Source of the DNA: Candidatus Woesearchaeota archaeon
GTDB taxonomy: Archaea; Nanobdellota; Nanobdellia; Woesearchaeales; JAZDKJ01
NCBI GenBank assembly: GCA_043803105.1
Contig: JAZDKJ010000010.1
Span: 47,052-111,051 of the forward strand
Length of the DNA stretch: 64,000 bases
Direction: 5' to 3'
The translations under genes were made by a program, and so were the position numbers. Shown here in pieces: positions 52,923 through 56,075 of the stretch (positions within the stretch are counted from its first letter, which is position 1; each line of letters begins with the position of its first letter). The notes beneath the pieces are model-generated. The model did no database searches. It was given only the letters and a program-made list of their open reading frames with translations, and had not been told where the DNA came from.

Positions 52923-53666
52923 ATGGGTATCCTTTTCTGGATTCTGCTTGCGACCCTGGTCAACGGTGCTGTTGGCCTTATAGGCATTTTTTCCCTTTTC
53001 ATGTCGCAAAGATTCTTAAAAAAGATTCTTATGGTGCTTGTCGCTTTCTCTGCTGGCGCCCTGCTTAGTGGTGCCTTGTTTCATTTGCTTGGCGAGGCCC
53101 TTTCAGTCCTTGATGTGACGACTGTCTTTGTCATCTTTCTCATCGGTTTTGTTCTCTTTTTCCTTGTTGAACGCTTTCTTCACTGGCACCACTGTCATGA
53201 CGGCAAGTGTGAAGTGCATCCCTTCAATTATCTTGTCCTTTTCGGTGATGGAGTACACAATTTTATTGATGGCGTTGTTATAGCAGCAAGTTTTTTTGTG
53301 GGCATCCCCTTTGGCTTTGTCACAACACTGCTCATCATTGCGCACGAGGTGCCTCAAGAGCTCGGTAACTTCGGAATCCTGATTTACGGCGGCTTTGGCA
53401 AGCTAAAGGCTGTATTCTACAGTTTCATCGCCCAGCTGACTTGTGTTCTTGGGGGTCTGATCGGATATATCCTGTCAGGTTCTGCCAAAGGCTTGTCTGC
53501 CTACGTGCTTCCCTTTGCTGCAGGTGGTTTTGTCTACATTGCAGCTTCAGACCTTGTGCCTGAACTTCACAAGGAACCGAAGATGAAGAAGTCCATGATT
53601 TCCTTCTCCTTTTTTGTCTTGGGTATTGTCTTCATCTGGTTGGTCAAGGTTTTTCTTGAGCCTTAG
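52923..53666 (+). CDS. ZIP family metal transporter
   Basis: HWHHCH, GDGVHNFIDG, HEVPQELG, DLVPELH. Confidence 0.93.
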   Translation: MGILFWILLATLVNGAVGLIGIFSLFMSQRFLKKILMVLVAFSAGALLSGALFHLLGEALSVLDVTTVFVIFLIGFVLFFLVERFLHWHHCHDGKCEVHPFNYLVLFGDGVHNFIDGVVIAASFFVGIPFGFVTTLLIIAHEVPQELGNFGILIYGGFGKLKAVFYSFIAQLTCVLGGLIGYILSGSAKGLSAYVLPFAAGGFVYIAASDLVPELHKEPKMKKSMISFSFFVLGIVFIWLVKVFLEP

Positions 53667-54319
53667 AACTCGCCTAGTTTTTTCTGTTTCTTGGTGTTTA
53701 CCATATCCTTGTAAGTTGCCCAGCTCTTTCTGTAGATTTCGGGGTTTTTTCTATGGTCTTGCTTGAGAAATTCCTGGGTTACCGGGTCTGCTGGATAGCC
53801 TGAGCCAATCCTTTGCCCGATCATTTCCTCGATTTTCTTTATCTCTCTGTCCCTTGTCACTTTTGCTATAATAGATGCAGCAGAAACAACTGGGTATTTT
53901 GCGTCAGCCTTGTGCTCAGCAACTATTTTGCACTTATGCAGCGTTCTTGACTCAATATAGCTGACAAATGCCTTGATATTATTGCTTGGGCAATCAATCT
54001 GCACCTCATTAGGTTTAAGTTCGTCAATTGCTTCAACCGCTTTTTGTGCTTCCAGCCAATTTAGGTTAAGCCCTTCTTTTCCATTTACTGCATCATCTAT
54101 CTCTTTTGGTGAGATTATGAAAATTTTCCGGGACTTTGATATCTTCAAGATGGTTTCATACAAGCCTTCTCTTTGTCGTGGTGTGAGCATCTTGGAGTCT
54201 TTTGCTCCTATATTTTTGAGCCTTTGCTCATCTTTGCTGTCAACTAGAAGTCCAACTACCACAAGAGGACCGATTACTGGCCCTCTTCCTGCTTCTTCTA
54301 TGCCGAGGGTTAGTGCCAT
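53663..54319 (-). CDS. rnhB: Ribonuclease HII
   Basis: GIEEAGRGPVIGP, DSK, EHKAD, VSAASIIAKVTRD, GSGYPADP, PIP box QKKLGEF. Confidence 0.93.
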   Translation of the reverse strand: MALTLGIEEAGRGPVIGPLVVVGLLVDSKDEQRLKNIGAKDSKMLTPRQREGLYETILKISKSRKIFIISPKEIDDAVNGKEGLNLNWLEAQKAVEAIDELKPNEVQIDCPSNNIKAFVSYIESRTLHKCKIVAEHKADAKYPVVSAASIIAKVTRDREIKKIEEMIGQRIGSGYPADPVTQEFLKQDHRKNPEIYRKSWATYKDMVNTKKQKKLGEF

Positions 54320-54344
54320 TAAGAAATGTTTGTTTACCGAATTA

Positions 54345-55088
54345 TTAAAGGTTTGGTTTATTGTTGAACGATATCCTGCAAGCTTTATCAAGGTGCCTTT
54401 TGTTCAAGAAACCAATCACTTTCATCCATAATTCGTAATTCATATGGCCGCAGAGTTCAATTCGGTTAATGATGAAATAACCTTTTACAAATCTCTTATC
54501 GGGCTGTTTGAGGTGAAAATACTTTGTTACTTTAAATCCAAGGTGCTCAAGCTCTTGCGCCACTTCATGCATAAATTCAAATGATTTGGAGGAACCTACA
54601 ATAATAGGGTAAAGCGGCTTCTTCATGCTTCCTCGTTTTAACCCCAAATAAAAATCAGTATCGGCCAGCCCTCTTAGGAAAGCTATAGTCAATTCCTTTT
54701 CCCCTTTGAATATTGAAGGTATCCTAAGTTTATCATATTTCTTGCCGCAAGGTAAGCCAATAACTCGTGTTAGGTACTCCAACAATCCCTTAGAATAAAC
54801 TACAAAACCGTAAGTCTCGCCAGAATCTTGAACACCAACTTTCAGGTCAATGTTGAATAACCTCTTAACCATCGGTTCAATTACATAATCATAGAAATGT
54901 TGCTCACTTTTAGGGTCTCCGACACATTTGATTATATAATCATGTTTCGTTAACCGGGTGTAAACGCTACCATCCCCTGCTATAAAACCACAAAAGTATG
55001 CCAATTCTCTTGACAATTCGACGGGCAAGACCAAACCTTTGATCACGTCTTTGTTACTAATTTCAACTTGTGACAGATCTAAACACAT
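54345..55088 (-). CDS. Free-standing double-motif LAGLIDADG endonuclease-like protein
   Basis: LAYFCGFIAGDGS and FLRGLADTDF; no intein splicing blocks; ATG at 55088. Confidence 0.87.
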   Translation of the reverse strand: MCLDLSQVEISNKDVIKGLVLPVELSRELAYFCGFIAGDGSVYTRLTKHDYIIKCVGDPKSEQHFYDYVIEPMVKRLFNIDLKVGVQDSGETYGFVVYSKGLLEYLTRVIGLPCGKKYDKLRIPSIFKGEKELTIAFLRGLADTDFYLGLKRGSMKKPLYPIIVGSSKSFEFMHEVAQELEHLGFKVTKYFHLKQPDKRFVKGYFIINRIELCGHMNYELWMKVIGFLNKRHLDKACRISFNNKPNL

Positions 55089-55212
55089 CTTTACTTCCCA
55101 TTTGGGTTCACGATTGCTTATATATCTGACGCTGGAGAATGTCCAGTGCCAAGTCTGTCGTCTTGAAAGAATTACCAAAGTCCTGTGCTAAAATTCGAGA
55201 AAATGAGATGAA

Positions 55213-55393
55213 TAGCGGGGGATGGACATTCAGAATCTTGGCAAATCCAAGATTTCGTTTGAACCATCGACCTTTATCCTTAGCTTTTTAGGCTAATATG
55301 GGTGTCTAGAGCTTTGAGAGCCTTATGAGCCTTCCGTGACTGCTTCATCTAAGGAGCAATCTCATCGGGCACTCCTGACTGCCCTACCCCGCT
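55213..55393 (-). tRNA. Initiator tRNA-Met(CAT) with four introns
   Basis: Exons 55393-55363, 55331-55324, 55303-55298, 55273-55258 and 55226-55213 join into a 75-nt cloverleaf with A1-U72 and GGG/CCC anticodon stem. Confidence 0.88.
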
Positions 55394-55485
55394 GTTGTAT
55401 CTTTGAGAAGAATAGTTAATTTATAAGTCTTTTGCATGTTTTTTAGAGCAAAAAATTTAAGTAGCCCTGCCACTGATAATCGTCT

Positions 55486-55868: not shown

Positions 55869-56041
55869 GGGGATGTAGTATAACTTGGCTAGAATAACTG
55901 GCTCCAGTAAAATGGAGCGATGAGCTGCAGAAATGCGGCGATGATTAGATAGCCGGTCTGTTGAAGGCATTGCTTCAATGAAGAGACCAGTTGATCTGGG
56001 TCCGAAAAGTAATCTTTGCTTCGGAAGTCCCAGCATCCCCA
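55869..56041 (+). tRNA. tRNA-Trp(CCA) with 78-nt intron at 37/38 (55908-55985) and 21-nt intron at 59/60 (56007-56027)
   Basis: Acceptor GGGGATG/CATCCCC; ACTGG-CTCCAG|A-CCAGT; T-stem CTGGG/CCCAG; 74 nt after removing both introns. Confidence 0.87.
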
Positions 56042-56075
56042 CTTCTTCAGATAATTAATTTCAGAAAAACCTAGC

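Follow-up and report, generated by a model that had tools for sequence, protein, structure and literature searches.

An initiator tRNA-Met gene with four introns in a woesearchaeal archaeon and the interruption of tRNA genes in its order

The window analyzed in this study (the whole stretch of 64,000 nt from a Candidatus Woesearchaeota contig) contains on its minus strand an initiator tRNA-Met gene that is broken into five exons by four introns. We consider it very likely from its sequence that this gene is functional and probably the sole initiator tRNA-Met gene of the organism, with all four introns being excised by the endonuclease EndA and the exons being joined by the ligase RtcB.

Gene Structure and Spliced Product

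The gene and its parts, together with two elements flanking it, are given below.

55393-55213, minus strand: initiator tRNA-Met(CAT) gene, five exons and four introns, read from the sequence
55418-55427, minus strand: TATA-like box CTTATAAATT with a purine-rich stretch before it and its center ~29 nt upstream from position 1 of the tRNA
55363-55393, minus strand: exon 1 (31 nt), 5' strand of the acceptor stem, D-arm and tRNA positions 26-29
55332-55362, minus strand: intron 1 (31 nt) at site 29/30, central helix 3/4 pairs, inner helix 7 bp
55324-55331, minus strand: exon 2 (8 nt), positions 30-37, including the anticodon CAT
55304-55323, minus strand: intron 2 (20 nt) at the canonical site 37/38, central helix 2/4 pairs, inner helix 4 bp (one G-U)
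55298-55303, minus strand: exon 3 (6 nt), positions 38-43
55274-55297, minus strand: intron 3 (24 nt) at site 43/44, central helix 3/4 pairs, inner helix 5 bp
55258-55273, minus strand: exon 4 (16 nt), variable loop, 5' strand of the T-stem and T-loop up to position 59
55227-55257, minus strand: intron 4 (31 nt) at site 59/60, strict motif, central helix 4/4 pairs
55213-55226, minus strand: exon 5 (14 nt), position 60, 3' strands of the T-stem and acceptor stem and discriminator A
55190-55203, minus strand: two T4 runs, 10-23 nt beyond the 3' end of the gene, read from the sequence

The exons were joined by script from these coordinates, and the resulting 75-nt product was passed to ARAGORN and to folding. 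ARAGORN identified it as tRNA-Met(CAT) with all stems paired and an acceptor stem of 7 bp, and the cloverleaf is also the unconstrained MFE fold of the product (-33.5 kcal/mol). Hallmarks of archaeal initiator tRNA-Met are the CAT anticodon, a terminal A1:U72 pair and an anticodon stem closed by three G:C pairs in a row. The cloverleaf drawn by ARAGORN has the A1:U72 pair and three G:C pairs at 29-31:39-41. An earlier reading of this DNA, made from its letters without database searches (the sequence-only reading), had taken the product for a canonical archaeal initiator, and the ARAGORN call, the MFE cloverleaf and these marks bear it out. The coordinates, the lengths of introns and exons, the insertion sites and the spliced product that it gave were all reproduced exactly on re-derivation. 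Left unspliced, the window yields no gene with ARAGORN and no Rfam family at gathering score, so that the initiator gene is invisible to standard tools.

Exon 5 encodes no CCA. The CTTATAAATT box is, from its position, a candidate archaeal promoter, and the L109 and L113 orthologues are preceded by similar boxes (TTTATAAATAA). The T4 runs downstream of the gene may represent a possible oligo-T terminator. A split or permuted tRNA gene, as known from the trans-spliced halves of Nanoarchaeum equitans, was excluded, since the five exons are collinear within 181 nt of one strand.

Splice Motifs at the Four Junctions

The bulge-helix-bulge (BHB) motif is defined by two 3-nt bulges around a 4-bp helix, with cleavage within each bulge (PMC5829648). 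The register used here was derived from the canonical 37/38 case: each of the two 3-nt bulges lies 3' of its own strand of the 4-bp helix and the cut is placed after the second bulge nucleotide, while one bulge was allowed in counting inner helices. This register is satisfied at all four junctions, of which one is strict (intron 4) and three are relaxed (introns 1-3). The sequence-only reading had reported one strict BHB and one or two mismatches in the others, which agrees with the central pairs counted here (3/4, 2/4, 3/4, and 4/4 for introns 1-4). In intron 4, the T-stem forms the outer helix (5 bp) and the inner hairpin has 9 bp (3+6) with one bulged A, scored as 8.

As a control for chance, the same intron lengths were placed at random sites in the non-ORF DNA of this genome. 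Support equal to or better than that of introns 1, 2, 3, and 4 was found 135, 2166, 641, and 13 times, respectively, per 200000 random site-length pairs. Because the boundaries were set independently by the orthologous mature sequence, the four junctions taken together are far beyond chance. In addition, a BHB-aware spliced aligner, in which the intron penalty is scaled by BHB support, recovered all four intron boundaries when these were withheld from it.

Two further searches concerned the content of the introns. Inspection by eye revealed no convincing box pair of a C/D-box guide in the four introns, and a search of the genome for paralogues of these introns returned only self-matches and chance matches of at most 17 nt.

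Orthologues and Distribution in the Order

Interruption this heavy, although striking, is common in this lineage, and the gene is not exceptional in it. In a DNA search of 41 related genomes, many proved to contain exon 1 at 93-100% identity. The match in genome G010 skips intron 1, and the stretch from exon 2 through exon 4, including introns 2 and 3, is 77% identical. Intron 2 is homologous to a 21-nt intron of G010, and both genomes have the 37/38 and 43/44 introns in common. Spliced alignment of 19 such loci gave no intron in eight loci, one intron in ten and two introns in one (G010, at 37/38 and 43/44).

At 48 loci in other genomes (8 of them intron-free), the orthologues, which have the same initiator marks, are identical to the spliced product at 61-72 of its 75 positions, and most of the differences are compensated within stems, where both partners of a pair have changed; this level of identity with paired stem changes indicates that the initiator gene model is right. 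All 49 spliced products were called Met-CAT over positions 1-75 by ARAGORN, partly by construction since the loci had been aligned to the product of the window. Anticodon loops with a C at position 33 were seen in the initiator genes L008 and L019 (genomes G011 and G019, respectively). U33 is almost universal in tRNA.

To survey the order, a pattern was used with exon 1 and exon 2 as anchors and a gap of 11-41 nt, corresponding to the 29/30 intron of the initiator gene. Of the 401 genomes taken as a sample of the order, 33 matched it, and none matched the reversed control pattern. Thirty of the 33 loci were examined (G050, G149, and G129 were left out), and their initiator genes contain two (9 loci), three (10 loci), four (9 loci, including the window), or five introns (2 loci). 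The five-intron genes, L109 (G236) and L113 (G209), have six exons of 7-16 nt, with introns at 7/8, in the D-loop and at 29/30, 45/46, and 59/60, all with BHB support. Their extra 7/8 intron, with a full central helix (4/4) and 8-9 inner pairs, was revealed because the 5' end found in the first pass was unable to pair with the 3' acceptor strand. Across the 49 loci, introns occupy 7/8, two or three sites in the D-loop, 29/30, 37/38, 43/44, 45/46, 53/54, and 59/60. Among the 47 orthologous loci counted, 33 have an intron at 37/38 and seven each have one at 43/44 and at 59/60.

A MAG of the same genus (G001, 84% complete) gave no match to the locus, the 29/30 pattern, the D-arm exon, or a 12-nt exon word. 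An exact match of a 19-nt junction word in the metagenome contig L144 was rejected as chance: its spliced-alignment score was -17, and BLAST detected no similarity between the contig and the window.

The central and inner helices covary among these loci. In the counts that follow, L113 and L122 were left out (their genomes are flagged as unpublished), and the register of the alignment was set by the BHB-aware aligner, which leans towards structure. The 29/30 introns compared are 19-34 nt long; their central pairs H1-H3 are formed in all 28 loci and H4, which shows four pair types, in 21 of these. The first four pairs of the inner helix are formed in all 28, each position showing 5-6 pair types. 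The 43/44 intron is paired in seven of seven loci, with three pair types. Intron 1 of the window is the sole one with an A·A at H4 (1/28 loci) and its intron 3 has the sole H2 mismatch (‘CA’, 1/7 loci), which places the motifs of this genome at the relaxed end of the family. Given these sole mismatches and the central helix of intron 2, with two of its four pairs, the efficiency of cleavage is uncertain.

Copy Number and Functionality

The genome of this archaeon (G000) comprises 1.56 Mb in 13 contigs, has a G+C content of 43% and is 96.5% complete. When the mature sequence was compared with both strands of all contigs in an intron-tolerant way, this locus scored 130 and the next best 73, a score that represents the background of such permissive scoring. 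A BHB-aware scan with initiator queries also returned this locus only. The sequence-only reading had called for a check for another tRNA-iMet; none was found in the assembly, and the initiator gene is probably the only copy, within the completeness given above.

That the locus might instead be a decaying, non-functional copy, with the working initiator residing in an unassembled part of the genome or arising from split genes, is in our view very improbable. The incomplete assembly in 13 contigs would leave room for such a second gene, and the weak central helix of intron 2, together with the fact that the central helices of this genome are the most degenerate among the orthologues, would fit decay; however, the exons are intact and give a product with a complete acceptor stem and all other stems paired, a TATA-like box is in place upstream, no other initiator-like sequence occurs on either strand of the 1.56 Mb, and in ten other genomes of the order the pattern match is likewise an initiator gene with four or five introns.

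Predicted Splicing Pathway

If the gene is functional, as we consider very likely, its transcript would be a precursor of some 181 nt, extended by a leader and a trailer. EndA would then cut in both 3-nt bulges of each BHB (eight cuts in total) and RtcB would join the five exons in four ligations. The ends would be trimmed by RNase P and RNase Z, after which CCA would be added. A single alpha4-like EndA would presumably accept the relaxed motifs, and would then be the relaxed-specificity endonuclease that the sequence-only reading had postulated.

The sequence-only reading had proposed that overlapping BHB folds force an ordered splicing. The motifs themselves do not support this, because the cores of the four BHBs can coexist in one fold: their central and inner helices use disjoint nucleotides and form one nested structure together with the acceptor and T stems. 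This all-BHB fold has an energy of -39.9 kcal/mol as drawn and of -44.7 kcal/mol with the rest free to fold, and the MFE of the precursor is -62.0 kcal/mol. A conflict does exist for the outer helix of intron 2, the anticodon stem: intron 1 interrupts it, and the central helix of intron 3 takes up its 3' strand. With introns 1, 3, and 4 deleted in silico, the MFE fold of the precursor is the cloverleaf with an extension formed by intron 2. Because this outer helix alone requires the prior loss of introns 1 and 3, it is plausible from these folds, though not forced, that intron 2 is spliced last. In the predicted order, introns 1, 3, and 4 would be removed in any sequence and the weak canonical intron 2 would follow.

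Even less probable than a decayed copy is that the introns are real but not all removed by EndA through BHB motifs, for example because another activity excises one or more of them or because alternative products are made. Such a scheme could appeal to the mismatches in three of the four central helices and to the difference between the full-precursor MFE and either energy of the all-BHB fold, yet all four junctions have the register of 3-nt bulge, 4-position helix and 3-nt bulge with an inner hairpin, and this register is held, with covariation, in the orthologous introns. Self-splicing introns have a ribozyme core of hundreds of nucleotides. Group I and group II introns were rejected here, as the window has no match to any Rfam family, these included, at gathering score and introns of 20-31 nt are far too short for self-splicing. 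EndA-dependent excision of all four introns thus remains the preferred reading.

The tRNA Gene Set of the Genome

Standard detection recovers few tRNA genes in this genome: six Rfam tRNA matches, four ARAGORN genes without introns and nine when one intron is allowed. A plain spliced aligner with cheap introns over-fitted (5-13 ‘introns’) and was replaced by the BHB-aware aligner. With the latter, 98 mature tRNAs, drawn from the initiator loci and from two relatives whose sets are mostly intact, were aligned to those 347 kb of the genome that lie outside long ORFs. Decoy searches against reversed sequence gave a best score of at most 14 for 22 queries, compared with up to 137 for real loci.

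We found 36 distinct tRNA loci at a score of at least 33 (after one duplicate row of the Leu-TAA locus had been dropped), containing no intron (2 loci), one (7 loci), two (18 loci), three (7 loci), or four introns (2 loci), 72 introns in total; the lowest-scoring calls (33-45) are less certain and several isoacceptors are still missing from this reconstruction. With two intron-free genes detected by ARAGORN only, the set of this genome amounts to ~38 tRNA genes and ~72 introns, or ~1.9 introns per gene. The second four-intron gene, located outside the window (G000:C12:60689-60895, minus strand), encodes tRNA-Leu(CAA). Its introns are 29, 30, 44, and 20 nt long with BHB support of (3,9), (4,8), (4,2), and (4,1), respectively, and ARAGORN gives the spliced product a good type-II cloverleaf.

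Long introns (30-150 nt) at a T-loop site of the 59/60 type have segments of 18-47 nt in common at 88-100% identity. They occur in the genes for Gln-CTG, Ser-GGA, Glu-TTC, Glu-CTC, Phe-GAA, Pro-CGG, Leu-TAA, and Ser-TGA, and these similarities suggest that the T-loop introns of at least eight tRNA genes form one family that has spread among genes. The four introns of the initiator gene fall outside this family.

Splicing Machinery

The genome encodes one detectable EndA, located as follows.

L101 1474-2085 (G000:C4:37117-37725), minus strand: EndA gene, beside the gene for RNase Z

The 203-aa ORF matches the N- and C-terminal EndA domains (PF01974, E 9.6e-28, and PF02778, E 2.6e-15, respectively). 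Its closest relatives (65-86% identity) are from Candidatus Woesearchaeota/Nanoarchaeota MAG records, and the best solved relatives are the catalytic alpha subunit of N. equitans (3IEY_A, E 8e-40) and the alpha4 enzyme of M. jannaschii (1A79, E 1.5e-35). Compared with the latter, the protein has no insertion of more than two residues in the printed alignment. A Lys-rich insertion of 6 residues, which precedes the catalytic His in the N. equitans alpha subunit, is missing as well. An N-terminal extension of about 35 residues, rich in Lys and Glu, is absent from the solved homologues that were aligned. No EndA beta subunit was found in the genome with PF01974 (E <= 0.001), NF007085 (E <= 10), or the alpha protein as query (E <= 10). 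From this gene complement, a single detectable alpha4-like EndA appears to handle the relaxed, non-canonical introns. According to PMC5829648, cutting of relaxed motifs has been shown only for (alpha-beta)2 and epsilon2 enzymes.

RtcB is encoded as well (PF01139, E 1.5e-165). Its gene carries, outside the window (G000:C6:11275-11304, minus strand), a 30-nt, stop-containing BHB intron with a full central helix (4/4) and an inner helix of 10 bp. The intron lies inside the conserved His-x-Gly-Tyr-Gly motif, and its removal in silico restores both motif and frame. Among 41 relatives, the in-frame stop in rtcB is found in this genome only, and it implies that a functional RtcB requires splicing. 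In three genomes (G001:C198, G012:C5, and G016:C10), the rtcB matches are split (profile 1-50 and ~49-426) within single frames of 818-1006 aa, a pattern suggestive of an intein-like insertion that occupies one common position in all three.

Comparison With Known Systems

Reviews of 2014 (PMC4033280) and 2021 (PMC8450103) give three introns as the maximum per archaeal tRNA gene. The statement in the sequence-only reading that such genes usually contain up to three introns is in line with these reviews but is now outdated: an October 2026 preprint on Asgard archaea reports 2.20 intervening sequences per gene and a maximum of five in its focal families (doi 10.64898/2026.10.13.758758), and the present survey adds eight further four-intron and two five-intron initiator genes. 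The gene in the window exceeds the older published limit of three introns, not the current one. Our literature searches found no report of four- or five-intron tRNA genes for DPANN.

The closest parallel is offered by the Asgard archaea. Valentin-Alvarado et al. [quoted passage not shown] Both systems have most tRNA genes interrupted, often at non-canonical sites, with several introns in over half of them, and in both many introns are missed by standard annotation. The intron load is likewise comparable, with 2.20 per gene and at most five in Asgard and ~1.9 per gene here, four in the gene of the window and five in two orthologues. In contrast, the lineage differs (DPANN/Woesearchaeota here, the word ‘DPANN’ occurring zero times in the preprint), as does the endonuclease complement, which is limited here to one detectable alpha-type EndA gene.

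Multiple-intron tRNA genes are also known from Thermoproteales (Sugahara 2007/2008, as cited in PMC4033280), and Pyrobaculum calidifontis contains 71 introns in 46 tRNA genes, or 1.54 per gene (PMC8450103). The two systems are alike in having BHB and relaxed-BHB introns in the D-arm, anticodon stem, variable region, and T-loop, in having introns so close that one has to be removed before the full motif of its neighbor forms (in genes with two or three introns; PMC8450103), and in having intron families common to different tRNA genes, here among the T-loop introns. They differ in the number of introns, with a stated maximum of three per gene there versus four here, and in the endonuclease, which is (alpha-beta)2 with a Crenarchaea-specific loop there, whereas no beta subunit was found here.

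Within DPANN, Kaneta et al. (2018) associated an alpha4-type EndA with an ‘L3’ loop with tRNA gene disruption, and they regarded DPANN tRNA sets as not fully predictable and called for manual curation (PMC5829648). A single alpha-type EndA along with many disrupted tRNA genes is what that account and the present genome share. The EndA of ARMAN-2 is an epsilon2 enzyme (PMC3239211). For 208 complete Nanobdellota genomes, tRNAscan-SE gave 26-54 tRNAs each, and missing tRNAs were treated there as possible split genes or detection failures (doi 10.64898/2026.05.13.725050). The failure of standard tools described above bears on these incomplete DPANN tRNA sets (PMC5829648; doi 10.64898/2026.05.13.725050).

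Significance

Taken alone, the gene in the window is one more archaeal multi-intron tRNA gene, and the remaining interest lies at the level of the lineage, where an order of DPANN archaea bears an intron burden like that of Asgard, with as many as five introns in the initiator gene, and apparently has a single alpha-type endonuclease. At the level of the organism, an apparently sole initiator tRNA would be obtained only after eight cuts by the endonuclease and four ligations, and two of its exons are micro-exons of 8 and 6 nt.

Tentatively, and with a confidence that we would place just short of an even chance, the Woesearchaeales may represent a second heavily interrupted lineage that is independent of Asgard, served by one alpha4-like EndA and by an rtcB gene that itself needs splicing. 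Under this reading, the tRNA genes would be interrupted as heavily as anywhere known, with about two introns each, as many as five in the initiator gene and no fewer than nine sites of insertion, and all of these introns would be processed by an EndA without a detectable beta subunit or known specificity insert. If true, the EndA of Woesearchaeales would have a broad BHB specificity with an unrecognized structural basis, and the ‘missing’ tRNAs of complete Nanobdellota genomes would mostly be undetected multi-intron genes and not split or lost ones. The organism would be a good test case for the determinants of EndA specificity.

Neighboring Genes

The other strand carries, some 475 nt away from the initiator gene (55869-56043, plus strand), a putative tRNA-Trp(CCA) gene with two introns, one of 78 nt near 37/38 and one of 21 nt at ~59/60. 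Its alignment score is modest (41), and both ARAGORN and Rfam missed it. This interrupted gene bears on the tRNA-Trp that was scored as ‘missing’ in 30 of 123 Woesearchaeales (doi 10.64898/2026.05.13.725050). On the same strand as the initiator tRNA and starting 35 nt downstream of it, a 277-aa ORF (54345-55178, minus strand) contains a LAGLIDADG_3 homing-endonuclease-like domain (E 7.5e-7) and is followed by a gene for RNase HII (53663-54391).
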